Positions 8,242 through 28,815 of a DNA stretch of 64,000 bases are shown here, piece after piece. Made by a program: the position numbers and the translations under genes. Source of the DNA: an uncultured virus (IMG/VR IMGVR_UViG_3300009507_000015) (Duplodnaviria > Heunggongvirae > Uroviricota > Caudoviricetes); IMG/VR virus record IMGVR_UViG_3300009507_000015, one strand, 5' to 3'. Under the pieces are notes generated by a model that saw nothing but the letters and a program-made list of their open reading frames with translations, ran no database searches and was not told where the DNA came from. Each line of letters opens with the position of its first letter. Within the stretch, counting starts at the first letter, position 1.

Positions 8242-9066
8242 ATGCCAGAATTAGCAGAACTTAGATTAACAGCAGCTTATATAAATGAGTGTAGTGGGAG
8301 TAAGGCTCCGACTATTAGATATACCAACATTAAGAAAAATCCAGTACATAAAGGAAAGGATATTGAACTTCCTTTTGAAGGTGGCTTTAATATTACTGCC
8401 GAGAGCCGAGGGAAAGAATTAATTTTATGGTTATCTCAACAAGAAGAAAAAGTTCCTCTCAAAATGACTATGGGAATGAGCGGTCATTTTAAATTAACTA
8501 ATACTGGCCAAGAACCTAAACATGCTCACTTAAAATTTTATAGGCATGATGGTACTACATTATCTTTTGTTGATGTAAGGCGATTTGGTAAATGGAAGTT
8601 AGGAGAAACTTGGGGCGTTAATCGTGGACCAGATCCTACTACTGAAGCTGATGAATTTAAATATAACATATTAAATAATTTAGATAAAAGAGTATTTGAT
8701 CAACCTATTCATTTAGTATTAATGAATCAAAAATATTTTAATGGTATTGGTAATTATCTTAGAGCTGAGATCTTATATAGGCTACCTGAAGTAAATCCTT
8801 TTATGGATGCTAGAGAAGTTATAGACAATTGCCCAAAGGTATTAGAACTATGTACAACTATACCAAGAAAAGCTTATTCATTAGGTGGTGGCCAATTAAA
8901 AGACTGGGAAAATCCGTGGCAATCAGATAAAGAAAAATTTGAAAGATTCATCAAATGTTATAACAATAAAAACATGGGGCATATCATGGATAAGAATGGA
9001 AGAAGGTTTTGGTTTGATCCTAAATGGAATATTCAAATGTTAGAATATATCTCTAAACAAAAATAA
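8242..9066 (+). CDS. Fpg/Nei DNA glycosylase, NEIL1-like (no zinc finger)
   Basis: MPEL start, RGKEL, GMSG, FVDVRRFG and H2TH GIGNYLRAEILY; no C-terminal Cys4. Confidence 0.9.
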   Translation: MPELAELRLTAAYINECSGSKAPTIRYTNIKKNPVHKGKDIELPFEGGFNITAESRGKELILWLSQQEEKVPLKMTMGMSGHFKLTNTGQEPKHAHLKFYRHDGTTLSFVDVRRFGKWKLGETWGVNRGPDPTTEADEFKYNILNNLDKRVFDQPIHLVLMNQKYFNGIGNYLRAEILYRLPEVNPFMDAREVIDNCPKVLELCTTIPRKAYSLGGGQLKDWENPWQSDKEKFERFIKCYNNKNMGHIMDKNGRRFWFDPKWNIQMLEYISKQK

Positions 9067-9110: not shown

Positions 9111-9605
9111 ATGGCAAACACTGATAATAAATGTAAGGATCTCGATGTTAGAGATTATTGGAAAGAGAAAGAATATGATGTTAAAGTTAATTCATTAGAA
9201 GAACTTTATTCTCTACAAGCTAAAACTCAAAATATGTATTTTGAAAAGCAAGGTAGAAAACCTTTCTCAGAGTTCACTATAGGTGATGTTATAGATTTTT
9301 TAATGGTTACTAATCATGCAATCATTGATGAGCTACATGAAATGGTAGATGCGGTTGGAGGAATCGAAGACGGTGTTGGTAATGCTGCATGGAAACCTTG
9401 GAAATCTAAAAATCCTGAAATCAGAAAACAAAAATTATCTGATTTAACACCAGGTGATTTAAAGGAATTAAAAATGGAATGGATTGATGTAATGCATTTT
9501 GTATTTAATGCAGGTTTAGCTATCGGCGTTTCTCCAAAAGAGTTCTATAATTATTATCTTTCTAAGAATGAAGAGAATTGGAACAGACAAGAAAACAATT
9601 ATTAA
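9111..9605 (+). CDS. Dimeric all-alpha dUTPase/dCTPase (MazG-like superfamily)
   Basis: DELHEM, WKPWK and EWIDVMHF motifs. Confidence 0.85.
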   Translation: MANTDNKCKDLDVRDYWKEKEYDVKVNSLEELYSLQAKTQNMYFEKQGRKPFSEFTIGDVIDFLMVTNHAIIDELHEMVDAVGGIEDGVGNAAWKPWKSKNPEIRKQKLSDLTPGDLKELKMEWIDVMHFVFNAGLAIGVSPKEFYNYYLSKNEENWNRQENNY

Positions 9606-12437: not shown

Positions 12438-14213
12438 ATGACAGCAGATCAAATAGAAAAAGAATTAGGTTGGGAAAGAGGCGTTGATTATCCTGAATGG
12501 GGTCACACCGATGTTTATTTAAATACAATATCAAGAGGGTATTGTTTACCTGGAGAAACTCCAAAGGATGCATATTGGAGAGTAGCAACAACTGTAGCTA
12601 ATAGGCTTAGGAAACCAGAAATGGCAGATAAGTTTATGAAGTACATTTGGAAGGGATGGCTGAATCTAGCCTCACCCGTATTAAGTAACACTGGAACTGA
12701 AAGAGGTTTACCTATTAGTTGTTTTGGAATTGATGTAGCTGATTCTATTAATGATATAGGCCAAAAAAATCTAGAGTTAATGTTATTGGCTAAACATGGT
12801 GGTGGTGTTGGTATTGGACATAATCAAATTAGACCAGCCGGTACTAACATAACTGATAATGGAACAAGTGATGGTGTAGTACCTTTTATTAAAATTAATG
12901 ATTCTACAATTTTAGCAACTAACCAAGGTGCAGTAAGAAGAGGAGCTGCAAGTACTAACTTAAGTATTGATCATGGTGATTTTTGGGAATGGTTAGAAAT
13001 TAGAGAACCTAAAGGCGATATTAATAGACAATGTTTAAATACAAATCAATGTGTTATTATAGGTGATAAGTTTATGAGGAATGTTTTAGAAGGAGATGCA
13101 GAATCTAGAAAAAGATACGCAGCGGTCCAAAGAAAAAGAAGACAAACTGGTCAACCTTATATAATGTATAGAGGAAATGTTAATAAACAAAACCCGGAAG
13201 CATATAAGAGAAACGGACTAAAAGTATTTATGACCAATATCTGTTCTGAAATTGTTTTGCATACAGATGAAAATCATTCTTTTGTTTGTTGTTTAAGTTC
13301 TCTTAATCTTTCTAAATATGATGAATGGAAAAATACAAACCTTATTTATGATGCAACATGGTTTTTAGATGGTGTACTTGAAGAATTTATTCAAAAGGCT
13401 AAATATAGAAAAGGATTTGAAAACTCTGTAAGAACAGCAGAAAAAGGTAGAGCAGTAGGTTTAGGTGTATTAGGATGGCATACTTATTTACAACAAAGAG
13501 GTATTGCATTTGAAGGGTTAGAAGCTCAATATGAAACTCGTAATATATTTTCTCAAATAAAAGTAGAAAGTGAAAGGGCAAGCCGGGATCTTGCTGAGGA
13601 GTACGGAGAACCTCTATGGTGTAGAGATACTGGATTTAGGAACACTCACCTAAGAGCAGTTGCACCAACAGTATCTAATTCAAAATTAGCCGGTGGTATA
13701 TCTGCTGGTATTGAACCAGTACCTGCCAATATATGGACAGATCAATCGGCTAAAGGAACTTTTATTAGAAAGAATCAGCAATTGTTAGGTTACTTAGAAA
13801 AAATGGGGCATGATAATAAAAAAGTATGGGATAAGATTATGGCTGATGGTGGTTCTGTGCAAGGTCTTAAATTTTTAGATGATTGGTGTTTCTTAAAAGG
13901 TATGCTAATTAAGTGTAAAGATGTACCAGAATTTCAAGAAGGTGTTCCTTTTAAAGATGTGTTTAAAACATTTAAAGAAATTAATCAATTAGATTTAATA
14001 AGACAGGGTGGTATAAGACAACAATATGTTGATCAAGCAGTATCTTTAAATTTAGCATTTCCTAAAGAAGCTACACCAAAGTGGATTAATCAAGTTCATC
14101 TTGAAGCATGGAAACAAGGAATTAAAACTTTATATTACATGAGAACTGAATCTGTATTAAGAGGAGATATTGCTAAAGCAGCAATGGAAGAATGTTTAAG
14201 CTGTGATGGATAA
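12438..14213 (+). CDS. nrdA: Ribonucleotide reductase class I alpha subunit (short, no ATP cone)
   Basis: PISCF, TNICSEI, APTVS, KTLYY and C-terminal CLSC. Confidence 0.95.
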   Translation: MTADQIEKELGWERGVDYPEWGHTDVYLNTISRGYCLPGETPKDAYWRVATTVANRLRKPEMADKFMKYIWKGWLNLASPVLSNTGTERGLPISCFGIDVADSINDIGQKNLELMLLAKHGGGVGIGHNQIRPAGTNITDNGTSDGVVPFIKINDSTILATNQGAVRRGAASTNLSIDHGDFWEWLEIREPKGDINRQCLNTNQCVIIGDKFMRNVLEGDAESRKRYAAVQRKRRQTGQPYIMYRGNVNKQNPEAYKRNGLKVFMTNICSEIVLHTDENHSFVCCLSSLNLSKYDEWKNTNLIYDATWFLDGVLEEFIQKAKYRKGFENSVRTAEKGRAVGLGVLGWHTYLQQRGIAFEGLEAQYETRNIFSQIKVESERASRDLAEEYGEPLWCRDTGFRNTHLRAVAPTVSNSKLAGGISAGIEPVPANIWTDQSAKGTFIRKNQQLLGYLEKMGHDNKKVWDKIMADGGSVQGLKFLDDWCFLKGMLIKCKDVPEFQEGVPFKDVFKTFKEINQLDLIRQGGIRQQYVDQAVSLNLAFPKEATPKWINQVHLEAWKQGIKTLYYMRTESVLRGDIAKAAMEECLSCDG

Positions 14214-14959
14214 TGGAAAAATATACTTATATACTCGGTCCTTGTAGTATTGAAAATGAGGATAACTTTTTAGAAGTAGCCAAAACCTTAGATGGTTATA
14301 TGGGAGGTAAAGATTGGTACTTAAAAGGATCTTTTGATAAAGCCAATAGAACTTCTATACATTCTGATAGAGGCCCAGGTTTAGCTAAAGGGTTGGCAAT
14401 TATGTGTTTAGTTAAAGATCGCTATCCTAATATTAAAATTATAACAGATATTCATGAAGCTAATCAAGCATTAGCTCTTTCTGATGTAGTAGATGTTATT
14501 CAAATACCAGCATTTTTATGTAGGCAAACAGATCTTTTAGTTGCATGTGCAAAAAACTTTAATATAATTAATATTAAGAAAGGTCAATGGTTATCAGCAG
14601 ATGCAATGAAACATGCAGTCGCAAAGATTAAAGAAGTTGATCCTAATTGTGAAGTATGGATAACTGAAAGAGGATCTAATTTTGGTTATGATAGATTAAT
14701 TGTAGATTTTAGAGGTGTAGATGTAATGAAAGAATTTGCAGACAAAGTTATTTTAGATTGTACTCATTCAACCCAAATGGCTGGAGAAGGCATAACCGGA
14801 GGTAGTCGTAAATTAGCTAAACAATATGCTCAAGCTGCAAAGATTTTTGAATATGATGGTGTATTTATTGAAACACACCCTGATCCTGAGAATGCTATTT
14901 CTGATTCTGCTAGTCAAGTAGAATTGGATTGGTTGGTGTCTCAAATAAATAATATATGA
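14213..14959 (+). CDS. kdsA: KDO-8-phosphate synthase
   Basis: GPCSIE, SFDKANRTS, QIPAFLCRQTDL, NIKKGQ, ERG, DCTHS, ETHPDP. Confidence 0.92.
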   Translation: MEKYTYILGPCSIENEDNFLEVAKTLDGYMGGKDWYLKGSFDKANRTSIHSDRGPGLAKGLAIMCLVKDRYPNIKIITDIHEANQALALSDVVDVIQIPAFLCRQTDLLVACAKNFNIINIKKGQWLSADAMKHAVAKIKEVDPNCEVWITERGSNFGYDRLIVDFRGVDVMKEFADKVILDCTHSTQMAGEGITGGSRKLAKQYAQAAKIFEYDGVFIETHPDPENAISDSASQVELDWLVSQINNI

Positions 14960-16017
14960 AATTAAACTATTCTAAGCTACTTAATCGTAAACCTATAATA
15001 ACTGATCTTAAATTAATAAAAGATTTTATTAAAGGTAAAAGAATACTTGTAACCGGCGGTGCAGGTTCAATAGGTAGTGAAATAGTAAGACAGTTGGTTA
15101 ATTTTAATGCATCAACTGTAACTGTGTTTGATAATGCAGAAGCATCAATGTTTCATTTAGAACAAGAGATAAGTAGATCAAATCCAAATTCTCATATTAA
15201 ATATGTAATAGGTGATGTTAGAGATAAGTATAGATTAGAAGAAGTTTTTGATTCTTTTAAACCTAATATAGTTTTTCATGCAGCTGCTTATAAACATGTA
15301 CCTATGATGGAGGCAAATCCTGTTGAGGCAATTAAAACAAATGTATTAGGCACAATGAATGTCTCAAATATCTCATATATGAATGAGGTAGAAAAATTTG
15401 TAATGGTATCAACAGATAAGGCAGTTAATCCTACAAATGTAATGGGTGCTACTAAAAGGATAGCAGAATTATATACTCAGTTCTTAGAAACAAAATCAGC
15501 AACTAAATTTATTGTCACAAGATTTGGAAATGTATTAGGATCTGAAGGTTCTGTAATTCCAACTTTTGTAAAACAAATTGAAAGAGGAGGCCCTGTTAGT
15601 GTAACACATAAAGAAGTCATTAGATATTTTATGACTATACCAGAAGCATGTCAATTAGTATTACAGGCAAGTGTACTTGGTAATGGTGGAGAGGTATTTT
15701 TATTTGATATGGGAGAACCTGTAAGTATTAATGATTTAGCAAAAAATCTTATTAAACACTTTAAAAGTAATGCTGAAATAGAATACATTGGATTAAGACC
15801 TGGTGAAAAGTTATATGAAGAACTCTTGTGTGATGGTGAAAATATGATACCAACGAAAGATGAAAATATAATGAAATTAAATCATGAAGAATATGATTTT
15901 AAAACTCTTATACCTAAAATAGAAAAATTATCTAAAGTAAGGGTAAATGATTTTTATAAAATAATTGTACTTATGACTAGTATTGTTCCACAATTTAAAA
16001 GAGAAAGTAATGATTAA
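14956..16017 (+). CDS. UDP-GlcNAc 4,6-dehydratase (PglF/CapD-type, soluble catalytic domain only)
   Basis: GGAGSIGSE, HAAAYKHVP, STDKAVNP, MGATK, RFGNVLGS, RPGEKLYEEL. Confidence 0.9.
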   Translation: MKLNYSKLLNRKPIITDLKLIKDFIKGKRILVTGGAGSIGSEIVRQLVNFNASTVTVFDNAEASMFHLEQEISRSNPNSHIKYVIGDVRDKYRLEEVFDSFKPNIVFHAAAYKHVPMMEANPVEAIKTNVLGTMNVSNISYMNEVEKFVMVSTDKAVNPTNVMGATKRIAELYTQFLETKSATKFIVTRFGNVLGSEGSVIPTFVKQIERGGPVSVTHKEVIRYFMTIPEACQLVLQASVLGNGGEVFLFDMGEPVSINDLAKNLIKHFKSNAEIEYIGLRPGEKLYEELLCDGENMIPTKDENIMKLNHEEYDFKTLIPKIEKLSKVRVNDFYKIIVLMTSIVPQFKRESND

Positions 16018-16552
16018 TATTTACGGAAAAGGTGATCACGCAAAAGTTGTTTCTTCTGCTATAAGATTACAACAATTTAAATTTTATGATGACTCTGATT
16101 ATAATCCTTTAGTAGAAGGTTTATGGGTTATTGGTATAGGTAATAATAAAACTAGAAAAAGAATAGCAGAAGAAGTATTAAGAGGTAAGCGATTCATTAG
16201 TACCTTTTCTGCAAATTCTATATGCCATTCATCATCTAATATCGGTGAAGGTACTCAAGTTATGGCAGGTGCAGTTATTCAAATGGGTTGTAAGATTGGA
16301 TCTCATTCAGTAATAAATACAGCTGCTTCAGTTGATCATGATTGTGAATTAGGTAAATATTCTTTTATTGGTCCTAATGCTACTTTATGCGGAGGTGTTT
16401 CTGTAGGAGAGTGTAGTTTTATTGGTGCAGGTGCTACAGTATTACCTTATATTAAAATTGGAAAAAATTGTATGATTGGTGCAGGTTCTGTTGTAACCAA
16501 AGATATACCAGATAATGTAACGGCATACGGAAATCCAGCTAAAATTAAATAA
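16010..16552 (+). CDS. Sugar N-acetyltransferase (PglD/NeuD family)
   Basis: Likely ATG at 16010 (MINIYGKGDHAKVV); IGIGNN, VDHDC, hexapeptide repeats, GNPAK. Confidence 0.88.
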   Translation: MINIYGKGDHAKVVSSAIRLQQFKFYDDSDYNPLVEGLWVIGIGNNKTRKRIAEEVLRGKRFISTFSANSICHSSSNIGEGTQVMAGAVIQMGCKIGSHSVINTAASVDHDCELGKYSFIGPNATLCGGVSVGECSFIGAGATVLPYIKIGKNCMIGAGSVVTKDIPDNVTAYGNPAKIK

Positions 16553-16553
16553 T

Positions 16554-17669
16554 ATGAAAAAGATTTACTTATCACCACCTCATATGTCAGGTAACGAATT
16601 AGAATATATTAAAGATGTATTTAAAGATAATTGGATTGCTCCAATTGGACCACATCTTACTATGTTTGAAGACATTGTTAAAAAATATACAAATTCAAAA
16701 TATGCAGTAGCTGTTACTTCATGTACAGCAGGTATTCATTTAGCATTAAGGGCGTTAAGGGTTAAAGAAGGTGATTATGTTTTATGTTCTTCATTAACTT
16801 TTGTCGCAACAGTTAATCCTATACTTTATTGTGGAGCTGAACCTATTTTTATTGATTCAGAAGAAGGGAGTTGGAATATGGATCCTATCTTATTAGAAGA
16901 AGCAATTTTAAATTCAACCGCATTAGGCAAAAAACCAAAGGCAATTATACCAGTTCATATTTTTGGAGTACCTTGTAATATGGATGCAATTAAAAAATTA
17001 TCAGATGAATATGACATACCTATTATTGAAGATGCCGCTGAAAGTTTGGGATCTACTTTTAATGATAAGCACACAGGAACCTTTGGCTCTATTGGTGTTT
17101 ATTCTTTTAATGGAAATAAGTTACTATCTACTTCCGGTGGTGGAGTTGTTGTAACTAATAACAAAGAACATGCTGAATACATGAAACACCTTTCTACTCA
17201 AGCAAAGGAAAATAGACCATATTATTATCATACTGATATAGGATATAATTATAGAATGAGTAATGTACTTGCTGCAATAGGAGTAGCCCAAATGGAAGTT
17301 ATCGAAGAAAGAATAAAAAGAACAAGAGAAGTTAATAAAATATATCAAAAAGAGGTTGGTAAATTTTTCTATTCATTTCAAGAAGAGCGGTCAGGCGATA
17401 GATCTAATATGTGGTTAACTTGTGCATTAATGAATGGTGAGGATAAACCAGAAGATTTAATTGAACATTTATCTAAAGATAACATTGAAGCAAGAAGAAT
17501 TTGGAAGCCAATGCATGAACAACCAGTTATGCAAGGTTATAAAAAATATATAAATGGAAACAGTTCTTTAATATTCTTACAAGGTATTTGTTTACCATCA
17601 GGTTCTGATTTAACAAAAGCAGACATGAAAAGAATAATAAAGTCTATAAAAACATTTTTTAACAAATGA
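16554..17669 (+). CDS. PLP-dependent sugar aminotransferase (PglE/DegT family)
   Basis: IYLSPPHM, IIEDAAESLG, SFNGNK, GYNYRMSN, LPSGS. Confidence 0.92.
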   Translation: MKKIYLSPPHMSGNELEYIKDVFKDNWIAPIGPHLTMFEDIVKKYTNSKYAVAVTSCTAGIHLALRALRVKEGDYVLCSSLTFVATVNPILYCGAEPIFIDSEEGSWNMDPILLEEAILNSTALGKKPKAIIPVHIFGVPCNMDAIKKLSDEYDIPIIEDAAESLGSTFNDKHTGTFGSIGVYSFNGNKLLSTSGGGVVVTNNKEHAEYMKHLSTQAKENRPYYYHTDIGYNYRMSNVLAAIGVAQMEVIEERIKRTREVNKIYQKEVGKFFYSFQEERSGDRSNMWLTCALMNGEDKPEDLIEHLSKDNIEARRIWKPMHEQPVMQGYKKYINGNSSLIFLQGICLPSGSDLTKADMKRIIKSIKTFFNK

Positions 17670-18910: not shown

Positions 18911-19462
18911 ATGGAAAAATGTTTAATGTTAGACTTTGATGATACTTTAGTTAAAACTATTGAGATTCATGCCGATTCATGGAGAAAGGCCTTAGAGAAA
19001 GTCTTAAACATAGAAATACCACTTTCTGCAATTATGGCAGATATTAATTATGGTATGGATGTTTTATTAGAAAAATATCAGTTAACTCCTAAAGAAAGTA
19101 AATTAGCACAAAAATATAAAAAGCAAATATTTTCAAAAAGCTTACATAAAACTAAAGTAAATGAACTACTTTTGTACATGTGTAAGAGTAAAGTATTTAA
19201 AAATTTAGTAATAGCATCTAATTCATCTAGAGAAAATGTAGATAGAATTATGAGTTATCATCAAATAGATCCAACATTATTTGATTACATATATACTAGA
19301 GAAGATGTATCAAATAAAAAACCAGCCCCAGATATGGGACATTTAATATTTGAAAAATTTCCACAATATAATTTTGAAGACTTCCTAATGGTTGGGGATT
19401 CTGATGTGGATTTAACTTTTGCACGTAAACTCGGAATAAAATGCATAATAGTAAAATTTTAG
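18911..19462 (+). CDS. HAD-superfamily phosphatase
   Basis: DFDDTL, ASNS, KPAP, VGDSDVD. Confidence 0.9.
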   Translation: MEKCLMLDFDDTLVKTIEIHADSWRKALEKVLNIEIPLSAIMADINYGMDVLLEKYQLTPKESKLAQKYKKQIFSKSLHKTKVNELLLYMCKSKVFKNLVIASNSSRENVDRIMSYHQIDPTLFDYIYTREDVSNKKPAPDMGHLIFEKFPQYNFEDFLMVGDSDVDLTFARKLGIKCIIVKF

Positions 19463-20187
19463 TAGGGAATAGCGGAGATAAGGTATTTCTCCAAGGTAAC
19501 AAAGTAATTAAAGAGGCAGGCCATTATCCAGAAAAATTCAAACAACAAATGGATTTTCTTATGTGCTGTGATCATCCTAATTTTATTGAGGTTAAACCTC
19601 TATCAGAAACAAGTTATGAAATGAAAAGATTCCCAACTTGGTATGATAAAATATTAGCACAACCTTTAAATACTTCATTAGGCCAATTAGAAAATCTTAT
19701 TTCAATTATAGGAAAGTTTGATAACATAGGATCTAATGTAAAGACTCAAGATTATTTTGAGAAACTTCAATTAAGAACAGGTTATACTTATGAAGGTAAA
19801 TTTGATGCAGTTTCTTGTTGGGGTTTTGTACATGGTGATTTAACAGTAAGTAATATTTTACATGATAAAGATTTTCTGTTTATAGACCCAAGAGGTACAG
19901 AAGAACAAGATTATTATGATTATGGAAAACTGATGCAATCGTTTGTTATGGAATATGAGTCCCATATATACAATAACCACAATAAAACATATAGTAAATT
20001 TTGCAAAGAAGCTGAAAAGGTAATGTATGAATGGTGTGATGAATATCAACTTAAATTCTTTTTAGCAGTTCATTTATTAGGAGCAGTGCCTTTCTTTGAA
20101 TTAAATGAAAGATATGAATTAGCTGGAAGTTTCCTTAAAAAAGGACATGAATTATTTGATGAATTAGAAATAAAGTATAGTAAATGA
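19441..20187 (+). CDS. APH/choline-kinase-fold phosphotransferase
   Basis: HGDLTVSNIL, FIDPRG, DYGKL. Confidence 0.82.
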   Translation: MHNSKILVGNSGDKVFLQGNKVIKEAGHYPEKFKQQMDFLMCCDHPNFIEVKPLSETSYEMKRFPTWYDKILAQPLNTSLGQLENLISIIGKFDNIGSNVKTQDYFEKLQLRTGYTYEGKFDAVSCWGFVHGDLTVSNILHDKDFLFIDPRGTEEQDYYDYGKLMQSFVMEYESHIYNNHNKTYSKFCKEAEKVMYEWCDEYQLKFFLAVHLLGAVPFFELNERYELAGSFLKKGHELFDELEIKYSK

Positions 20188-20888
20188 AAAGAGTAAGTAA
20201 AGCAATTATATTAGCTGCCGGCCGTTCTACTAGGTATGGTAAAAATAAATTAGTAGATCCTATCTTAGGAAAGTCAACAGTTGAATACTGTGTAGAATTT
20301 TGTATGGAGAATGGTATAGAGGATTGTTATATTACGATTAGTAAAGCAGATTTCTTTTTTAAAGATAATGTAAAACTTTCTCATCCTATTATTGAAAAGT
20401 TAAGTAAGTATAAAAAAGACATTAACATATTTTATGAATTCCAAAAGGATGATGAATATGGTCCAGGTGCAGCCATAAAGGTATGGGCAGATAAATTTGA
20501 TGAAGCTTTCTTATGTTTATTTGGAGATAATTATTACCAAGGAAATATAGGATTAGAATATCATGATCCTAGCAGTACAGTTGTAACTTATAAAGATTAT
20601 GATACAAGAGCAAGAAATTTACAACTTGCATCTATATTAGAAAATGTTGTTATTGAGAAACCACACGGAATTGTTTCAGGCAGATACTTTTGTGGATATA
20701 TGATATTTTCTAAAGAAGCATTCAATAATCTTGACAGTATTAAAATGTCAAATAGAAATGAATATGAAATTACTCATTTGATTAATTCAATGAATAATTT
20801 AAAGTTTGAAGAACTAAACATATGTTGGTATGATCTAACATATGAAAATGATAAAGAAGTAATAGAAGAATTAATAAAAACGTGTTAA
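20184..20888 (+). CDS. Sugar-1-phosphate nucleotidyltransferase (RmlA-like)
   Basis: AIILAAGRSTR, FGDN, EKP, SNRNEYEIT, WYD. Confidence 0.85.
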   Translation: MKRVSKAIILAAGRSTRYGKNKLVDPILGKSTVEYCVEFCMENGIEDCYITISKADFFFKDNVKLSHPIIEKLSKYKKDINIFYEFQKDDEYGPGAAIKVWADKFDEAFLCLFGDNYYQGNIGLEYHDPSSTVVTYKDYDTRARNLQLASILENVVIEKPHGIVSGRYFCGYMIFSKEAFNNLDSIKMSNRNEYEITHLINSMNNLKFEELNICWYDLTYENDKEVIEELIKTC

Positions 20889-22151
20889 ATGGAAAATGTT
20901 AAAAAAGTAGGTTTTTTTAAACTTGGTAAAGCGATTAAGTTTAATGAAAACAGTTGGGGTGCAATAGGTGGAGATTGCGAACCTAAGCAATTAATTAATT
21001 CAATTGCAAAAAGAAATCCTAATATTGATTATTGGTTATTAAGTCCAAATGATTTAGGAAGAGTTAGAGCAAAAGAAAAGCCAGCAGTTCAATCATTATT
21101 CGGACCTCCTGCTGAAACAGAATCAGCTGCACCATCAAATGTAAAAGAATTCCACTCTACAATGACTGATAGGAAATCATCTGATGAGGCTGCACAAATT
21201 ATAAAAGATTTAGATTTAGATTTTATTTTCTTTTACACCGGGCCGTCAAGTACTGTTAATATACCTGATTTTATTAATAAAGTAGATGGAACTGGTAGAG
21301 TTAAATCTTTAGACTTTTTTAAATATTATGCTGCTCCTATTATTAAAGCAATGAATGAATTGGAAAAGAAGGTTCCTATTGTTGGTTTACTTGTAGATAA
21401 TCGATACATTTTAGCCTGTAAAGATTGGAACAATAACAATAGACCAACTTATTACTTAGCTCAAAATACTTTTACAAAAACAGAAGAGTTCTTTTGTAAT
21501 CCTCCTTTAAGAGATGTTGATACTATTGAATCTACTTATGAATACTCTGGTATTGAAACTGTATTCCTTTTAGATAAAAAGAGATATAATACCGATGAAT
21601 TGTTTGAAATGAAAAAGACTAATTCATTTATGATGTTACAAAACCAAGGAAAGGGTTCAGGTGGAATGGACCGTTGGGATCCTGTTAGAGATTATATTGT
21701 AAAGAATGATATTGAGACCGATATTTATGGAAAATGGGATGATAATTTAAAGGAAGAATATCCTAAATGGTTTAAAGGTGAAAAGAGAATTGAATCAATG
21801 ACTGATGAATTACTTTCTACTAAGTATACATTCTGCGTACCTATTAAAGAAGGTATGGTAACCTCTAAGTACGCTGAAATGTTACACTATGGTATTATAC
21901 CATTCTTACACCCATCTTACGATACTGACTTTAATGTCTTCCCTGATGGTCATTTTATTAGATGTAAATCTCCAGAAGATTTAAAAAAGAAAGTACAATT
22001 TTTAAATGATAATCCTGATCATTATAAAAAATTATTTTACAACTTACAGGAAAAATATTTAAAAGATTCTTATTACACTGGAGAACATGTAGATAATAAG
22101 ATCTGGGAAGCTTACAATAAAATAACAACTAAAACTGAAATCAATGTATAA
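20889..22151 (+). CDS. GT-B glycosyltransferase resembling T4 DNA beta-glucosyltransferase
   Basis: Colinear segments like BGT: LLVDNR, YEYSGIE, DR..., DIYG, FKG, VTSKYAEML, YDT, and a C-terminal L.KKV..L helix. Confidence 0.7.
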   Translation: MENVKKVGFFKLGKAIKFNENSWGAIGGDCEPKQLINSIAKRNPNIDYWLLSPNDLGRVRAKEKPAVQSLFGPPAETESAAPSNVKEFHSTMTDRKSSDEAAQIIKDLDLDFIFFYTGPSSTVNIPDFINKVDGTGRVKSLDFFKYYAAPIIKAMNELEKKVPIVGLLVDNRYILACKDWNNNNRPTYYLAQNTFTKTEEFFCNPPLRDVDTIESTYEYSGIETVFLLDKKRYNTDELFEMKKTNSFMMLQNQGKGSGGMDRWDPVRDYIVKNDIETDIYGKWDDNLKEEYPKWFKGEKRIESMTDELLSTKYTFCVPIKEGMVTSKYAEMLHYGIIPFLHPSYDTDFNVFPDGHFIRCKSPEDLKKKVQFLNDNPDHYKKLFYNLQEKYLKDSYYTGEHVDNKIWEAYNKITTKTEINV

Positions 22152-23163
22152 TTCAAACACTAAAATCCTAGTTACTGGTGGCGCTGGGTTCGTCGGTACA
22201 AATTTTATCAACGACTTATTAAACAGAGGCCATAATCCTAAATGTATTGCCGTAATTGATAATATGGAACATGGTACTTATATACCTAAAGTTCATGATC
22301 AAATAGAAAACTTTCATAGAGTTGATATTAGAAATCAATTCGTAGAAACTATTATAGAAAAATTTAATCCTGATTATGTTTATCATTTTGCAGGTTTAGT
22401 TTCAATCTATGATTGCCATGAAGATGTATATGAAGCAGTAGATAATAATATTTTAGGAAGTATTAATGTAATGAATGGCTGTCTTAAAGCAGATGTTAAA
22501 AGAATTATATTTAGTGAAACTTCAGCTGTATATGAAAATTGCGAAATGCCTAAAGCTGGCTTTAACGAAACACAATCAGATCCTACTACAATTTATTCAA
22601 CAACTAAAGCATGTCTTGCTCTATTGGCAGAATCATACTGTAGAACTAAAGGATTAAATTATACTGCACTTAGATACTTTAATGTAGCAGGACCTTTACA
22701 AGATTATGAAAGAACTATACCACCTGTATTTGCTGGATTTATTTTAAGAATTAAAGGTGGTCGTAATCCTATTGTGTTTGGAGACTATATGAAAGCAAGA
22801 GATTATATTGATGTATCAGATGTTAATGCATTTCATATTCTTTGTATGGAAAATGAAGATACTGCAAACCAAACATTTAATTTAGGAACTGGTAAAATGA
22901 CTAACTTAATGGATCTTAAAAATCTGATTGCAGATATTATGGATGTTAAAGTTGAATTTGATCATTATGATGCAATTGCAGGTGAAGCATTAAATTCATA
23001 CGGAGATATCTCTAAAGCTAAATCTATGGGATGGGAACCTAAGAAAGATATAACTGATACAATTAAAGAAACTATTGTATACTTAGAAAATGAAATAGAA
23101 GAAGGTAACATTGATCCTTTTACATTCATGGAAGATTTAGAAATTGAAAAAGTAAAAATATGA
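22144..23163 (+). CDS. NAD-dependent NDP-sugar epimerase/dehydratase (GalE-like)
   Basis: TGGAGFVG, YSTTK, LRYFNV, RDYIDV. Confidence 0.9.
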   Translation: MYNSNTKILVTGGAGFVGTNFINDLLNRGHNPKCIAVIDNMEHGTYIPKVHDQIENFHRVDIRNQFVETIIEKFNPDYVYHFAGLVSIYDCHEDVYEAVDNNILGSINVMNGCLKADVKRIIFSETSAVYENCEMPKAGFNETQSDPTTIYSTTKACLALLAESYCRTKGLNYTALRYFNVAGPLQDYERTIPPVFAGFILRIKGGRNPIVFGDYMKARDYIDVSDVNAFHILCMENEDTANQTFNLGTGKMTNLMDLKNLIADIMDVKVEFDHYDAIAGEALNSYGDISKAKSMGWEPKKDITDTIKETIVYLENEIEEGNIDPFTFMEDLEIEKVKI

Positions 23164-24428
23164 GCAAAGAAAAAGAATTAAAATGGGGTACTATGATTCC
23201 GTTAATCGGAGGTAGTGCAATAGGATGTAATAAAGCAACAGGTAATTTACCGGCATTTCATTTAAGTTATGATGCATTTGCTGCAAACGAAAGTCATATA
23301 GAAGATTATTGGCCAGACGTACCTATGTATAGAATAGATCACGAAGAATTGGATATTCCTAATCAAACATTTGAACAAGTAGATTTTGTAAATTCTGTTT
23401 GTCCTTGTGCAGGTTTATCCCAATTAAATTCTGCGAGCGGTACAGCTGCATCAAGAGGTTCTGGTGCTACACAAAACAAGTGGATGTATGATTCAGCAGA
23501 ATATGTTTTAGAACACGTTAAGCCTAAAGTATTATGGGGAGAAAACGCACCAGGACTATTTACTAAAATGGGAGAAGGTGTTGTAGATAATCTTAAAGAG
23601 ATTGGTAAAAAGTATGGTTATAGTTTTTCTTTAATTAAAACTAATACTGAATTACATGGAATTCCACAAAGAAGAATAAGAACATTTTATTTCTTTTGGA
23701 ATACACCAACAGTTCCTATGTTAGGTTGGCAGTTCAGAGAAAAGAAACATCTTATTGATTATCTTAAAGAAATACCAAAGGATGCAACCTTACAAGATAT
23801 GTTTATGGTTGCTGGAAAAGTAACAGATCATTATAAGCCTTATGAATTTGTATTAGAAAAAGAAGGTTTAACTCATGCTGAATTCGCTAAGAAATTTGGT
23901 AAAGGTACGATAGCTCAGTATTTAGAAAAGCATGATTTAATTGATGAGTGTATCCAATGGCTAGATAAAAATTATCATAAACAAGGATTCTCTAATAAAA
24001 AATCTACAAAATCATTTGGTGATATGTTAGAACATCAAAAATATAAAACAAGCCAAGGTTTAGGTTATTGGGATGCATCGCCACATTTCTTTAATGAAAG
24101 CTTTTCAGCTCTTATTGGTAGAAATATGTTTAACGGTGTACACCCAACAGAAAACAGATATTTAAACATTAGAGAAATGTTACACTTAATGGGATTACCA
24201 TTAGACTTTGGAATTAAAGATGCTAGGCAAGTTAATCACATTGCTCAAAATGTACCAGCAACAACTGCAATGGACATGGCAATTGAAGTAAAGAAATTTT
24301 GTGAAGGTAATGCTAAGATGACAAATTATACCTTTATGAAACAGGATAATACTAAACAAAAAGTTTTAGTAACTGAAGAGTTAGGAGCAGAGCCAAAAAA
24401 GAAGTATAAAGTTAATAGTACTTTTTAA
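23160..24428 (+). CDS. C5-cytosine DNA methyltransferase-fold enzyme with atypical cofactor-binding motifs
   Basis: Motif IV PCAGLS, VI ENAP, VIII PQRRIR, IX RYLNIRE; motif I reads IPLIGG and motif X reads AQNVP. Confidence 0.85.
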   Translation: MSKEKELKWGTMIPLIGGSAIGCNKATGNLPAFHLSYDAFAANESHIEDYWPDVPMYRIDHEELDIPNQTFEQVDFVNSVCPCAGLSQLNSASGTAASRGSGATQNKWMYDSAEYVLEHVKPKVLWGENAPGLFTKMGEGVVDNLKEIGKKYGYSFSLIKTNTELHGIPQRRIRTFYFFWNTPTVPMLGWQFREKKHLIDYLKEIPKDATLQDMFMVAGKVTDHYKPYEFVLEKEGLTHAEFAKKFGKGTIAQYLEKHDLIDECIQWLDKNYHKQGFSNKKSTKSFGDMLEHQKYKTSQGLGYWDASPHFFNESFSALIGRNMFNGVHPTENRYLNIREMLHLMGLPLDFGIKDARQVNHIAQNVPATTAMDMAIEVKKFCEGNAKMTNYTFMKQDNTKQKVLVTEELGAEPKKKYKVNSTF

Positions 24429-24475: not shown

Positions 24476-25225
24476 ATGGAAGCAACTATTAAAAAAATTG
24501 ACGGTTACGAATTAAGTACATTCGTCAAAAAACTTTTACCGATTGATAAATTCATTTTTATGAAAATTGGACAAGAAGGAACCGTTTCATCTGTTTACTT
24601 CCCTGAGAGGGATGCAGTGAAACTAGTATCAACACCAACATCTGATATCTTTGACACTGACATTACTAATCCAGTAAAAGTTAGTTTTTATAATGGTACC
24701 AAAGTAATCGATGCGCTATCTCATTTTAATGGAGATGTACAAGGCAAAATTAAATACTCTGAGATTGATGGAGAATTAATGGCAAGTGATTTTACTTTAG
24801 AGAATGATGATCTTCAAATTAATTTAGCATGTGCTGATCCATCATTATCATTTATGGAAATGAGTAAAGAAGAAACTGATCGTGCATTTGGAACTGATGG
24901 AAATTTATTTCAATTTGATCTTCTTACAACTCATGTAGATAAAATGAAATCTTTATTTAATTTAGAAAGAGAAGAAGATACATTTACATTAGCAGTAACT
25001 GATAAGGGTATTGCTGTACAAGGTCTTTCTTATGATGCTACTTTAGCTCATTCTTATGAAGGCGAAAATGCAGTAGGACAAAAGGTTGTAATTTACAAAA
25101 AATATATTAACCTTTTAGATAAAGAAAACTATAAAGTGGTAGTTTGTAATAATAAAGTTGTATTTAGATCTTTAGATACCAACACTCACTTAACAGTTGC
25201 AGTAGCAATTACTGACGAGGATTAA
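24476..25225 (+). CDS. gp45: DNA polymerase sliding clamp (gp45-like)
   Basis: Size; CADPS linker resembles T4 AADPS; position among replication genes. Confidence 0.7.
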   Translation: MEATIKKIDGYELSTFVKKLLPIDKFIFMKIGQEGTVSSVYFPERDAVKLVSTPTSDIFDTDITNPVKVSFYNGTKVIDALSHFNGDVQGKIKYSEIDGELMASDFTLENDDLQINLACADPSLSFMEMSKEETDRAFGTDGNLFQFDLLTTHVDKMKSLFNLEREEDTFTLAVTDKGIAVQGLSYDATLAHSYEGENAVGQKVVIYKKYINLLDKENYKVVVCNNKVVFRSLDTNTHLTVAVAITDED

Positions 25226-25564: not shown

Positions 25565-26689
25565 ATGACAGAGCTTACCGAATTACAACAAATTAATAAA
25601 GAAGCAAGTAAGTTTTATAACTATGAGCAAGCCGTTAAGTTAATGCTTAACTCTATTTATGGCGCATTTGGTAATCCTTATTTTTATTTCTTTAATGTTG
25701 ATATAGCAGAGACTATAACATTACAAGGTAAAGATGCAATTTTATATACTGAAGAATTACTTAATATGTACTTCAGTAAATATTGGCATAAAGATATTGC
25801 TGCTCATAAAGAAATGGGAATTACTGTAACAGGCAGAATAGAAAACCCAGTAGGAATTTATATTGACACTGATTCTGTTTATGTAAAGTTTGATGAAGTA
25901 ATAGAAAAATCTGAAGGTTGGAAAGGTGATGAAAAGGAGTTTATTTTAAAACTCTATAAAGTTAGAGTAAACGGTTACTTAGAAAAAATACTTCAGAAAT
26001 ATGCAGATGATAATAATGCAGAAAACTTTTTATCTTTTGAATTAGAAAGTATTGCAAAAAATGCAATATGGTTAGCTAAGAAAAAATACATGCAAAATAT
26101 TGTATGGAAAGATCCAGATATTCATTATGAAGACTTATCTAAAATCAGCTCAAAAGGTTTTGAAATTATTCAGTCATCAACACCAATATTTGCTAGAGAA
26201 AAATTAAAAGATCTCCTAACATACATATTCTCTGTTGATAAATTAGATATGAAACAATTTGCTGCTTTACTTAAAGATATTAAAAGGCAATTTAAATTAG
26301 CTAATGTAGATCAAATTAGTTTTTCACGAAAAGTAAATAATTATCAAAAGTATATAGTAAATGATTATGAAGCTTTTGAATTTGCATCAAGGTGCCCAAT
26401 AGGTGTAAGATCCGCAGGTTATCATAATTATCTGTTAAATAATTCTTCATCTAAAGGTAAATATCAACCTTTAGGAAATGGTGAAAAATGTAAAATGTAT
26501 TTCTCTAAAGATAAATCATGTGATGTATTTGCATTTTCTCCTGGAGATTTTCCTTATGAATTTGCACCAGAGATTGATCATGATAGACAATTTGAAAAAA
26601 CAATATTAGATCCTATTAATAGAGTAGTAACTGCAATGGGATTTAAGGCATTTAATAGAAACTTGATTTATACAACTAGTTTATTTTAA
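25565..26689 (+). CDS. gp43: Family B DNA polymerase, C-terminal subunit (motifs B and C, thumb); split gp43B-type
   Basis: KLMLNSIYG, YIDTDS, KKKY, KGFE...SSTP. Confidence 0.92.
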   Translation: MTELTELQQINKEASKFYNYEQAVKLMLNSIYGAFGNPYFYFFNVDIAETITLQGKDAILYTEELLNMYFSKYWHKDIAAHKEMGITVTGRIENPVGIYIDTDSVYVKFDEVIEKSEGWKGDEKEFILKLYKVRVNGYLEKILQKYADDNNAENFLSFELESIAKNAIWLAKKKYMQNIVWKDPDIHYEDLSKISSKGFEIIQSSTPIFAREKLKDLLTYIFSVDKLDMKQFAALLKDIKRQFKLANVDQISFSRKVNNYQKYIVNDYEAFEFASRCPIGVRSAGYHNYLLNNSSSKGKYQPLGNGEKCKMYFSKDKSCDVFAFSPGDFPYEFAPEIDHDRQFEKTILDPINRVVTAMGFKAFNRNLIYTTSLF

Positions 26690-26719: not shown

Positions 26720-27907
26720 ATGCGTAATAGAAAATTTAGAATTCACTTGCTAGGATTACCTCACACTAAAACTACATTAGATTTTACTGCATGTGCTTAT
26801 ACAATGAAGGCATGGAAATTTTGTAAAATGATGAAAGGTAGAGGTCATCACTTAATGCATTATGGTCATGAAGAATCTAACCCATGTGCTGACGAAAACA
26901 TTCCTGTAATTACAGCAGAGAAATGGGATAAGGTTTACGGTGAGCATGATTTTCATAGTAAATTTTTTAAATTTGATGTAAATGATGATGCATATCAAGA
27001 ATTCTACAAAAATGCAATTGCTGAAATAGAAAAAAGAAAACAACCCGGTGATATAATTTTACCATTTTGGGGTGGTGGTGTTAGACCAATATGTGATGCT
27101 CATCCAGATCTTACTGTAATTGAACCCGGTATAGGATATGCACATGGTCATTGGGCTAACTTTAAAATATTTGAATCTTATTCAATATATCATGCATTTT
27201 GTGGTTTAGATAATGTAGGTACATGTAATCAACATTGGTATGATATTGTTATTCCTAATTATTTTGATTTAGATGAATTTGAATATTCTGACAAAAAAGA
27301 AGATTACTTTTTATTTGTAGGTAGGGTATATGATGGTAAAGGTCTTAATATTGCAATTCAAGCAACACAAGCAATAGGAGCAAAATTAAAAGTAGCAGGT
27401 CAATTATCAGGCCACTATGCAGAACCAGATTTTGTATGGCCAGATAATGTAGAGTTTATGGGTTATGTTGGAATGGAAGATCGTAAAAATTTAATGAAAG
27501 GTGCTATAGCATCATTCTTACCATCTATGTATGTTGAACCTTTTGGGGGAGTTCAAATTGAAAACTTACTTTGTGGTACGCCAACTATTACTACTGATTG
27601 GGGTGCATTTACAGAAAATAATATTCCAGGTGTTACTGGTTATAGATGTAGAACTTTTGATGAATTTGTACAAGCCGCAACTAATTGCAAAAATGGTGTA
27701 ATAAAATCTAGTGACTGTAGAGCTCATGGTGAAAAATTCTCTTTAGAAAATATTGCACCTAGGTATGAAACATTTTTTAACGATGTATTAGATATATCTG
27801 GATATGAAGGATGGTATGCAATACAAGATCCATCTATTTATGATCCTAAATACTTAGCAACTCGAGGATATGCACCTGACGGATCTAAACTAGAAAAAAA
27901 AAGCTAA
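26720..27907 (+). CDS. GT-B (GT4-like) glycosyltransferase
   Basis: FLFVGR...KG, EPFGGVQIE..LCGTP. Confidence 0.88.
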   Translation: MRNRKFRIHLLGLPHTKTTLDFTACAYTMKAWKFCKMMKGRGHHLMHYGHEESNPCADENIPVITAEKWDKVYGEHDFHSKFFKFDVNDDAYQEFYKNAIAEIEKRKQPGDIILPFWGGGVRPICDAHPDLTVIEPGIGYAHGHWANFKIFESYSIYHAFCGLDNVGTCNQHWYDIVIPNYFDLDEFEYSDKKEDYFLFVGRVYDGKGLNIAIQATQAIGAKLKVAGQLSGHYAEPDFVWPDNVEFMGYVGMEDRKNLMKGAIASFLPSMYVEPFGGVQIENLLCGTPTITTDWGAFTENNIPGVTGYRCRTFDEFVQAATNCKNGVIKSSDCRAHGEKFSLENIAPRYETFFNDVLDISGYEGWYAIQDPSIYDPKYLATRGYAPDGSKLEKKS

Positions 27908-28815
27908 AGCCTAAATTAGCAATATGGACTGAAGGCGGCTGGTCTTTAGGGAAGGTTTACAAAGGTTTAAAAGATTCCTTAGATTTTAAATACGATATAG
28001 ATTTTTATGACTGGAGTAATAATGACGGTAATAAAAGACTATGGACTGATGGGGCATGGAAAGATTACGATGCTATCCTAGGTAACACTGCATTAACATT
28101 TTGGCCAGAAGAATTAGGCTATTTAGAAAAATTACCCCAAGAAGCATTAGATAAAATGATTATAGGAATCTGGGCTAATTTAAATTTAAATAATGCTCAT
28201 TTTATGGAAAGGATTAAATATACCGAAGGTCCTATGTTCCACTGCGTAAACGAAGAAATACAAAAAAGTGCAAAAGAAAAATATAATGTTACTGCTACTT
28301 TAGTTAAAGCAGGTAAACCTACCGCTGACTTTACTCAATTTAAAACTATTAAAAAAATATCAACATTAGGACTAAACGGTAATCCTCAAATTGGAGAAGC
28401 ATGGTGCCAAGTAAAAAGACCAGATATGTTTAAAGAAATTGCAGAAAAATCAGGATGCAAATATTCTTTCATATTTAATTCCCCAGAAAAAGATAATAAA
28501 ATTTATAAAGACATAGACATGTATGTATGCACGAGTACATACGAATCTGGGCCGGCTGGTATTATGGAATGTGCTTTAAGTAAAATGCCAGTTATATCAA
28601 CTAACACTGGTCATGGTAAAAATATAAAATCTATAAAAACATTTGAAACTGTTGATGAAGCAGTATCAATTATTAATGAATTAAATTCATCACCTGAATT
28701 ACTTCATAATTATATTGAGGAGGTATATAATGAAGTTATCGAAGAATATGATTGGTCTACGGTTACTCCTAAATATTGGATTCCTTTAATAGACAAACTC
28801 TTAAACAAATCATAA
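27889..28815 (+). CDS. Second GT-B-like domain; frame open from 27889 with no start codon before 28156, probably fused to the upstream GT by slippage
   Basis: Upstream in-frame KLAIWTEGGWSLGKVY; C-terminal ESGPAGIMECALSKMPVIST. Confidence 0.7.
   Translation, partial: TRKKKLKPKLAIWTEGGWSLGKVYKGLKDSLDFKYDIDFYDWSNNDGNKRLWTDGAWKDYDAILGNTALTFWPEELGYLEKLPQEALDKMIIGIWANLNLNNAHFMERIKYTEGPMFHCVNEEIQKSAKEKYNVTATLVKAGKPTADFTQFKTIKKISTLGLNGNPQIGEAWCQVKRPDMFKEIAEKSGCKYSFIFNSPEKDNKIYKDIDMYVCTSTYESGPAGIMECALSKMPVISTNTGHGKNIKSIKTFETVDEAVSIINELNSSPELLHNYIEEVYNEVIEEYDWSTVTPKYWIPLIDKLLNKS

Follow-up and report, generated by a model that had tools for sequence, protein, structure and literature searches.

When supplied with 13 mM formaldehyde, the C5-cytosine DNA methyltransferase (C5-MTase) M.HhaI is reported to give ~90% 5-hydroxymethylcytosine (5hmC) at GCGC sites in vitro (PMC7176277), and in the phage enzyme CmoX an arginine (Arg350) is reported to replace Asn304 of HhaI, the residue at this position of motif X deciding the use of carboxy-S-adenosylmethionine (carboxy-SAM) (PMC12783734). 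In phage C5-methyltransferase (C5-MT) clades III–VI, motifs VIII–X are described as disrupted and no activity was detectable in E. coli (Burke et al., 2021, PMC8256090; Pyle et al., 2023, bioRxiv 10.1101/2023.12.21.572611). Here we analyze a methylase-like protein encoded at positions 23160–24428 (+ strand) of a 64,000-nucleotide stretch of DNA from an uncultured virus (Caudoviricetes; IMG/VR record IMGVR_UViG_3300009507_000015), the whole of which we refer to as the window. An original prediction, made from the sequence alone, had proposed that this protein has intact catalytic motifs and a remodeled pocket for S-adenosylmethionine (SAM), that it may use another donor, and that it may directly supply the hydroxylated acceptor for a neighboring enzyme resembling the T4 beta-glucosyltransferase (BGT). 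The chemical background it invoked is well founded, the formation of 5hmC from formaldehyde in the M.HhaI reaction and the redirection to carboxy-SAM by the motif X residue in a natural enzyme, CmoX.

We find that the protein is a member of the C5-cytosine DNA methyltransferase-fold superfamily and that it belongs to a distinct, widespread and uncharacterized clade of such enzymes, referred to below as the PLIGG/QNVP clade. The reading we favor, with slightly less than even confidence, is SAM-dependent transfer of a one-carbon group to cytosines that have been left unmodified.

Fold and Motifs of the Methylase-Like Protein

The gene and the motifs of its product lie as follows:

23160..24428, + strand: C5-cytosine DNA methyltransferase-fold enzyme of the PLIGG/QNVP clade, 422 amino acids (PF00145, phrog_116, AF2/Foldseek)
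23196..23213, + strand: motif I variant IPLIGG (canonical FxGxGG), residues 13–18; hhalign pairs FAGIGG of Dcm with I13-P14-L15-I16-G17-G18
23262..23279, + strand: motif II region LSYDAF, residues 35–40; hhalign pairs the Glu of Dcm, invariant in the five canonical enzymes, with Ser36
23403..23408, + strand: motif IV PC, residues 82–83, Cys83 being the catalytic nucleophile; aligned to PC of HhaI and HaeIII
23541..23549, + strand: motif VI ENA (canonical ENV), residues 128–130; aligned to HhaI, HaeIII and the five canonical enzymes
23667..23681, + strand: motif VIII QRRIR, residues 170–174; aligned to QxRxR of HhaI and HaeIII
24243..24257, + strand: motif X variant AQNVP (canonical GN[AS]VP), residues 362–366; profile alignment to M.HaeIII

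The match to PF00145 (E 4.8e-19) scores 69.4 bits against a gathering threshold of 22 and spans residues 55–357, corresponding to profile positions 44–300 of 324, so that the ends of the protein carrying motifs I/II and motif X lie outside it; phrog_116 is matched at E 2.4e-20. An AF2 model (mean pLDDT 88.3, pTM 0.86, built on 19 homologues) has the two-domain fold of the C5-MTases, and its best Foldseek matches are DIM2, MET1, M.HaeIII and M.HhaI (E ~1e-12 to 1e-11), with CmoX (8yf3) also among the matches. A plain sequence search against solved structures aligned only residues 75–205 to HhaI, and the curated NCBIfam dcm model (TIGR00675) gave the protein 43.9 bits, below its cut-off of 100.65, the E. 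coli Dcm control scoring 350.8.

The termini were mapped with a clade profile aligned by hhalign to five canonical C5-MTases, namely Dcm of E. coli and four enzymes from phages, among them one with an m5C methylase annotation. This alignment had a probability of 96.3% (E 1.6e-9), and the five-enzyme set was required for it, as hhalign against Dcm alone returned a probability of 2.4% and left the N-terminus unaligned. In motif I only the last two glycines of F-x-G-x-G-G are kept, and the Phe is replaced by Ile13. The acidic, ribose-binding residue of motif II is replaced by Ser36, and position 38, which is also in this region, is variable. In the profile alignment to M.HaeIII, IGNAVPV is paired with IAQNVPx, so that the Gly-Asn of motif X is absent and its Asn becomes Gln363. 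A further change is at Trp108, which aligns to Leu100 of HhaI. The residues that activate the cytosine, on the other hand, all align to both HhaI and HaeIII (P82-C83, E128-N129, and Q170, R172 and R174). Judged by these alignments and the predicted fold, every residue required for the flipping of a pyrimidine and for attack on its C6 by Cys83 is present.

All six motifs are thus where the original prediction had placed them in this open reading frame (ORF), and its central claim of a remodeled cofactor side next to intact cytosine-activating residues is upheld by the hhalign comparison, by the M.HaeIII profile alignment, and by the conservation described below. It had erred in calling ENA canonical: the five canonical enzymes read ENV, and Ala130 is a trait of the clade.

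The PLIGG/QNVP Clade

Of 6632 candidates from a word-index search, 2622 were homologues at E <= 0.001, and an exhaustive search gave 941 representative clusters, 319 of them with E <= 1e-30. Conservation was measured in 133 representatives (50% identity, at least 340 amino acids) of the 150 listed, shorter ones having been dropped beforehand. The altered cofactor side is well conserved in this set: in motif I, P14 and L15 each reach 92%, G17 94% and G18 93%; in the motif II region, S36 reaches 83%, N43 89% and an acidic residue at position 44 (D/E) 92%; in motif X, Q363 reaches 96% and N364 93%. The catalytic side is scarcely different (C83 96%, E128 98%, N129 97%, A130 98%, Q170 97%, R172 and R174 98%), and Asp60 of motif III (77% Asp) is kept, as is the GG loop. 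The most variable stretch is the target-recognition region, residues 183–320, with a mean conservation of 0.30. In a separate sample of 83 clade proteins from 81 loci, PL[IV]GG occurs in 81, PCAG in 82 and QNVP in all 83. Because the altered pocket is about as conserved as the catalytic C83 and E128, we infer that it has been rebuilt and maintained and is not decaying, and that a defined ligand is still bound there.

Three loci (L068, L070, and L072) have two tandem methylase-like paralogs, each of which keeps PLIGG, PCAG and QNVP; the pairs come after an AGT-type gene and a second glycosyltransferase gene. The clade has cultured carriers in Cyanophage S-TIM5, Bacillus phage G and Pseudoalteromonas phage XG4. 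Outside the supplements to Burke et al. (2021) and Pyle et al. (2023), whose alignments might contain the clade, we found in the literature no characterized PLIGG/QNVP member and no paper on the clade. The main texts of the MetaGPA paper and of Lee et al. (2026) do not mention a methyltransferase, and for the TIM5-like phages a figure legend gives only “DNA meth,” “DNA alpha-GT,” and “2OG-Fe(II) oxyg.”

Genes Flanking the Methylase-Like Gene in the Window

The genes 5′ of the methylase-like ORF form a tight array on the + strand (a GT2 glycosyltransferase, then HAD phosphatase, kinase-like, nucleotidyltransferase, BGT-like and epimerase genes), and the methylase-like ATG overlaps the stop codon of the epimerase gene by 4 nucleotides. 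On its 3′ side are a probable sliding clamp, the C-terminal part of a split family-B DNA polymerase, two GT1 genes and UvsX. These genes, together with a pyrophosphohydrolase gene situated further 5′, are:

9111..9605, + strand: NTP pyrophosphohydrolase (phrog_173, E 5e-18; phrog_18650, dUTPase, E 1.2e-9)
18911..19462, + strand: HAD phosphatase (PF13419, E 1.3e-23)
19441..20187, + strand: kinase-like protein, a candidate sugar kinase (phrog_21938 and phrog_4098, both listed as function unknown; weak match to a Bud32-type kinase)
20184..20888, + strand: sugar-1-phosphate nucleotidyltransferase (PF12804, PF00483; NCBIfam sugar-1-P nucleotidyltransferase models match below their cut-offs)
20889..22151, + strand: BGT-like GT-B glycosyltransferase, 420 amino acids (AF2 and Foldseek; weak Pfam match only)
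22144..23163, + strand: NAD-dependent sugar-nucleotide epimerase/dehydratase (PF01370, E 1.4e-44; the nearest models are GalE-type, below cut-offs)
24476..25225, + strand: probable sliding clamp (language-model look-alike at rank 26, in a “sliding clamp family” cluster, score 0.95, a lead only)
26720..27907, + strand: GT1-family glycosyltransferase (PF00534, E 2e-16; phrog_3408, E 4e-160)
28156..28815, + strand: second, shorter GT1-type glycosyltransferase (PF00534, E 6.4e-6)

The BGT-like character of the product of 20889–22151, which had been assigned from sequence, is confirmed by its fold: an AF2 model of moderate quality (mean pLDDT 74.3) has the T4 beta-glucosyltransferase as its top four Foldseek matches, the best at E 2.8e-9. 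This likeness came from the fold search alone, as a profile of the BGT-like family searched against solved structures found no glycosyltransferase of note. In other lineages the place of the kinase-like gene is occupied by a fusion of an NTP-transferase with an APH domain. Both GT1 genes are in a stretch (26735–28801) that has no counterpart in L006, a contig otherwise collinear with the window at 87–88% identity. Taken together, the methylase-like gene is part of a post-replicative DNA-modification module in which genes for sugar-nucleotide supply are followed by the BGT-like transferase, the methylase-like enzyme, and then clamp and polymerase. A complex prediction for the methylase-like and BGT-like proteins, made without controls, scored 0.00, which speaks neither for nor against their binding.

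The probable sliding clamp at 24476–25225 has no Pfam or PHROG match, and such a gene comes after the methylase-like gene in 58 loci. In the lineages with a family-B polymerase, we noted a likeness among the C-terminal tails of several products (window 23160–24428, 20889–22151 and 25565–26689, and related loci): the methylase-like proteins end in KVNSTF, KSII or SLF, several transferases of other lineages in TSLF or KLF, and the polymerase in TTSLF. A resemblance of the methylase-like and transferase tails to that of the polymerase would fit their docking on the clamp.

Genes That Travel with the Clade

To place the window beside its relatives we took 600 IMG/VR pattern matches, 564 of which encode a relative, and kept the best 80. 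The 83 clade proteins mentioned above were grouped at 70% identity into 17 lineages, and the neighborhood of each gene was defined as the 6 kb around it. A glycosyltransferase is present in this neighborhood in 12 of the 17 lineages, 11 of them by a preset list and one (L074) through RgpF-type and GT2 genes beyond that list; the transferases include the BGT-like family, AGT-type DNA alpha-glucosyltransferases (PF11440, phrog_2888) and others. In three further lineages a homologue of the 5-hydroxymethyl-dU DNA kinase (HMUDK-like, PF18723) is encoded directly 5′ of the methylase-like gene (loci L056, L058, L060, L061, L064, L077, and L079), bringing the lineages with a glycosyltransferase or such a kinase within 6 kb to 15 of 17; in the window, the BGT-like gene is two genes 5′. 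Two lineages have neither, one of them with its gene just before the contig end. At L078 (5898–10544) the methylase-like gene lies between two genes for DUF6734 proteins, followed by a PhyH-type 2OG-Fe(II) oxygenase gene, with no recognizable glycosyltransferase or kinase. In Bacillus phage G the gene is near an annotated alpha-glucosyltransferase, a sugar nucleotidyltransferase and a HAD phosphatase, and AGT-type genes are present in both phage G and Cyanophage S-TIM54.

In 9 of the 17 lineages the same 6-kb neighborhood also encodes a homologue of thymidylate synthase (TS) of the dCMP type (see below), frequently accompanied by dUTPase, thymidine kinase and dCMP deaminase; two of the three kinase lineages have such a TS homologue. 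The pairing of an HMUDK-like kinase with a dCMP-type TS homologue hints at a phosphorylation-based hypermodification of cytosine and not of thymine.

A search for longer forms of the enzyme yielded 17 proteins. One (P0304, 889 amino acids; a single sequence) is a fusion of an HMUDK-like kinase (residues 225–360, E 6e-11) to a methylase-like domain (residues 548–840). Another (P0224, 838 amino acids) carries a zinc finger at its N-terminus and a methylase domain of the clade's type (YPNAGG, Ser, Asn-Glu and CQGVP), and so has Pro14, the GG, Ser36, Asn-Glu and the motif X Gln in common with the phage enzyme; its C-terminal region (residues 636–820) matches the human TET2 catalytic domain at E 6.8e-12. 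The 90% cluster of P0224 has 47 members, and of the 15 listed, 8 are full-length (838 amino acids), from several sources. Relatives of eukaryotic type (P0224, P0042, P0067, and P0121) are 34–60% identical to the phage enzyme, several being 750–1465 amino acids long. The long forms at 55–60% identity have eukaryote-type zinc fingers, in one case CXXC, and six isoforms are labeled as coming from a copepod transcriptome. Such relatives may have arisen by exchange of genes between eukaryotes and phages or viruses, or they may be contaminants.

Source of the Hydroxymethyl Group

The original prediction had proposed that the methylase-like enzyme may supply the hydroxylated acceptor of the BGT-like transferase. 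We searched nine records with a clade member (seven IMG/VR contigs, Cyanophage S-TIM54, and Bacillus phage G) and found a TS homologue in all nine. In each there is a copy with Asp at both the ThyA Asn177 position and the Asp169 position, whereas the four canonical ThyA copies in the same records keep Asn177. Asn177 sets the specificity for dUMP versus dCMP, and an Asp169Asn change is reported to mark 5-hydroxy-dCMP synthases (Lee et al., 2026, PMC13326640). In a comparison of two of the homologues to solved structures, CMP/dCMP hydroxymethylases (E 1e-25 to 1e-18) were for both the better match than thymidylate synthases. The one TS homologue of S-TIM54 was considered as an exception, its whole sequence matching thymidylate synthases best; this was rejected as it has Asp at the Asn177 position. 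A supply of 5-hydroxy-dCMP, as in RB69, was likewise rejected, because the TS homologues retain Asp169.

In the window, none of the 64 ORFs scanned with Pfam matches TS, and tblastn with three TS-family proteins found nothing (best E 0.53). The window is collinear with a contig at 87–88% nucleotide identity in which the TS homologue lies ~47 kb 3′ of the methylase-like gene, and the counterpart is consequently expected ~8 kb past the end of the window. The NTP pyrophosphohydrolase at 9111–9605 is a candidate for the dCTPase of a T4-type 5hmC nucleotide pathway. No match to PF12851 (TET/JBP) was found among the 64 window ORFs, and none of five related records had one at E <= 1.

With a dCMP-type TS homologue in 9/9 records, an NTP pyrophosphohydrolase in the window, and the T4 BGT-like fold of the transferase, the acceptor would come from a T4-type nucleotide pathway. 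That is, the acceptor of the BGT-like enzyme is most likely 5hmC made at the nucleotide level, a conclusion that for the window phage is extrapolated from its relatives. The methylase-like enzyme is then probably not the main supplier of the hydroxymethyl acceptor, and the original prediction is on this point mostly unsupported.

The Reaction of the Clade

We envisage that the phage would swap cytosine for 5hmC at the nucleotide level, by means of the dCTPase-like enzyme and the dCMP-hydroxymethylase-type TS homologue, and would then glycosylate it. In newly made DNA, the methylase-like protein would flip out a pyrimidine, Cys83 would attack its C6, and a one-carbon group would be put on C5 of those cytosines that had remained unmodified. 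The re-wired pocket would most likely still hold an adenosyl cofactor, SAM, with Ile13 and Trp108 in place of the Phe/Leu pair that flanks the adenine, Ser36 and the conserved Asn43-Asp/Glu44 in place of the ribose-binding Glu, and Gln363 in place of Asn; the Ile13/Trp108 swap is a possible means of preserving the adenine sandwich. We favor SAM because the pocket is conserved around a nucleotide-type loop, because Asp60 and possibly the adenine sandwich (Ile13/Trp108) are kept, and because of the TET2-like fusion and the eukaryote-type relatives. A TET domain requires 5-methylcytosine (5mC), and the fusion of a clade member to a TET2-like domain thus argues that the rebuilt pocket still supports methyl transfer, while relatives of eukaryotic type argue for a cofactor that is a common, universal metabolite. 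The DNMT3 enzymes are without the motif X Asn and yet use SAM. A variable target-recognition region and tandem paralogs would also be as in sequence-specific methylases.

Several observations weigh against this reading. Three SAM contact sites (the motif I Phe/first Gly, the motif II Glu, and the motif X Asn) are altered together and invariantly, a joint loss that is unusual, and the protein fails the curated dcm model. Should a 5-substituted base take the place of all cytosine, the DNA of the phage would offer a C5 methyltransferase nothing to act on. The clade is linked to 5-substituted-cytosine pathways, by glycosyltransferases in 12 of the 17 lineages, by kinases in three more and by the kinase fusion, and a plain methylase leaves unexplained this link to enzymes that decorate 5hmC. 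No TET/JBP gene that could use 5mC is present among the 64 window ORFs or in any of the five related records, and we found no assay of a clade member in the literature. The TET2-like region of P0224, furthermore, corresponds to no more than the initial part of the TET2 catalytic domain, and the eukaryote labels could stem from contamination.

A tentative and, in our view, somewhat doubtful alternative is that the clade in these phages is not a methyltransferase at all but a covalent (Cys-C6) catalyst of cytosine 5-hydroxymethyl chemistry in DNA, which either forms 5hmC on stray cytosines without SAM or exchanges phosphate or sugar on a 5-CH2-O-X group, the partner being held in the rebuilt pocket. 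If this were true, thymidylate-synthase chemistry would have a natural counterpart at the level of DNA, and the enzyme would represent a new class of enzymes for DNA hypermodification. The exchange form, taken by itself, is unlikely. Here the substrate would be 5hmC in DNA, or its phosphorylated or glycosylated form: Cys83 would add to C6, the 5-CH2-O group would be expelled to leave an exocyclic methylene, as in thymidylate synthase, and another nucleophile would be captured, with the leaving group or the incoming nucleophile occupying the former SAM pocket. C5-MTases can carry out atypical reactions on 5hmC itself in vitro. The position of the gene directly after a DNA glycosyltransferase (12 of 17 lineages) or an HMUDK-like kinase (3 of 17), the kinase–methylase-like fusion protein, and the strict co-occurrence with a dCMP-type TS homologue (9/9 records) all agree with such a substrate, as do the smaller side chains by the target base (ENV to ENA, PCQ to PCA), which may be related to substrate size, and atypical chemistry of a C5-MTase at cytosine C5 is established in vitro by the reported formaldehyde reaction (PMC7176277). 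Set against this are the homologues with the same pocket in eukaryote-type proteins and in the TET2-like fusion, where glycosyl- or phospho-5hmC is not expected, the poor quality of glycosides as leaving groups, the dependence of the kinase fusion on a single sequence, and our finding no natural precedent in the literature. Less likely again is direct hydroxymethylation of stray cytosines from formaldehyde or methylene-tetrahydrofolate without SAM, for the adjoining transferase or kinase to finish, which is the original prediction in reduced form. It would make sense of the remodeled SAM contacts and would account for the adjacency or fusion to enzymes that use the 5-hydroxymethyl group and for the co-occurrence with the 5hmC pathway, and it has its model in the conversion by M.HhaI. 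That conversion, however, required 13 mM formaldehyde (PMC7176277), the TS homologue is the main supply of acceptor, a conserved pocket with a nucleotide-type GG loop and Asp60 suggests a cofactor resembling a nucleotide and not free formaldehyde, we identified no feature for folate binding, and 5mC fits the TET fusion better.

We consider it improbable that the enzyme transfers a non-methyl group from a modified SAM, such as carboxy-SAM in the manner of CmoX. The motif X Asn position, which decides carboxy-SAM use in CmoX, is changed and invariant in the clade, and CmoX (8yf3) is among the fold matches; yet the signatures of CmoX are absent, the phage enzyme having VCPC and not SPPC, and Gln and not Arg. 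Among the 64 window ORFs, no methyltransferase family appears other than the enzyme's own PF00145, and no CmoA stood out in these general scans, no CmoA-specific search having been made. The eukaryote-type homologues, moreover, argue for a universal cofactor. A CmoX-type use of carboxy-SAM was for these reasons (no SPPC, no Arg, and no CmoA-type gene standing out) rejected as the leading explanation. We give hardly any weight to a purely non-catalytic role, in which the protein would help the glycosyltransferase by binding DNA or flipping bases: its persistent adjacency to DNA glycosyltransferases would suit a helper, but the catalytic Cys, Glu and both Arg are conserved at 96–98% in the 133 representatives.

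Other Gene Content of the Window

The window has a G+C content of ~30% and nearly all of its genes on the + strand. It encodes T4-type portal, capsid, sheath, terminase, UvsX, clamp-loader and helicase proteins, and its nearest capsid protein in a phage collection, at 55% identity, is that of an uncultured 462 kb phage. The family-B DNA polymerase is divided between two genes, an N-terminal (exonuclease) part at 9629–11044 and a C-terminal part at 25565–26689, with ~14.5 kb of ribonucleotide reductase, sugar-biosynthesis and DNA-modification genes between them; in a relative (L044) there is an extra polymerase piece with an intein-splicing domain. A second sugar pathway at 14213–17669 comprises a DAHP/KDO8P-synthase-type enzyme, a PseB-like dehydratase, a PglD-like acetyltransferase and a DegT aminotransferase, and a sialyltransferase-like gene is found at 46530–47330 (− strand). 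These genes suggest a nonulosonic- or bacillosamine-type sugar. The phage, with its probably hypermodified DNA, also encodes an Fpg/Nei-type DNA glycosylase (8242–9066). A collagen triple-helix repeat protein (2–2152; PF01391, E 1e-99) is encoded in DNA with a local G+C content of 45%, as opposed to ~30% elsewhere.

Comparison with Known Systems

The clade numbers in the thousands, and in it three hallmark SAM contacts have been swapped and every catalytic residue kept, in a family that is among the best understood of DNA enzymes. It travels with enzymes that decorate 5hmC, where C5 should be occupied, which points to either plasticity of SAM binding or a new reaction. Its chemistry bears on how phages build and proof-read hypermodified DNA, on how eukaryotes have acquired related enzymes, one fusion to a TET-like oxidase included, and on the enzymes available for sequence-specific labeling of DNA; the cultured carriers make the reaction directly testable.

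With the bacterial type II C5-MTases (M.HhaI, M.HaeIII, and E. coli Dcm) the phage enzyme shares the fold (Foldseek E ~1e-12), motifs IV, VI, VIII and IX, and a variable target-recognition region. It differs in having Ile-Pro-Leu, Ser and Gln for the motif I Phe/first Gly, the motif II Glu and the motif X Asn, in reading ENA for ENV, in falling short of the NCBIfam dcm cut-off, and in the linkage of its gene to 5hmC-decorating genes and not to restriction enzymes. CmoX, described as a DNA cytosine C5-carboxymethyltransferase of Synechococcus phage S-B43, is likewise a phage C5-MTase homologue with a change at the position of HhaI Asn304, and its structure (8yf3) is a fold match; as reported, it has SPPC, Arg350 and an accompanying CmoA (PMC12783734), whereas the phage enzyme has VCPC and Gln363, and among the window ORFs scanned no gene of the CmoA type stood out. 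In the described clusters of C5-MT, TET (5mYOX) and glycosyltransferase or kinase genes (PMC8256090; 10.1101/2023.12.21.572611), as in our loci, a C5-MT-type gene adjoins a DNA glycosyltransferase or P-loop kinase gene. The window and the five related records are, however, without TET/JBP, the relatives' records having a dCMP-type TS homologue instead, and motif VIII is intact in the phage enzyme, unlike what is reported for clades III–VI.

The T-even pathway (T4 dCTPase gp56, dCMP hydroxymethylase gp42, and beta-glucosyltransferase) has the BGT-like fold and the NTP pyrophosphohydrolase in common with the window, and the relatives of the window have a TS homologue that matches CMP/dCMP hydroxymethylases best and carries the dCMP-specific Asp. 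T4 is not known to have a methylase-like enzyme of this kind. The window phage, by comparison, makes its own sugar nucleotide, through a HAD phosphatase, a kinase-like protein, a nucleotidyltransferase and an epimerase, and adds to this pathway a methylase-like enzyme.

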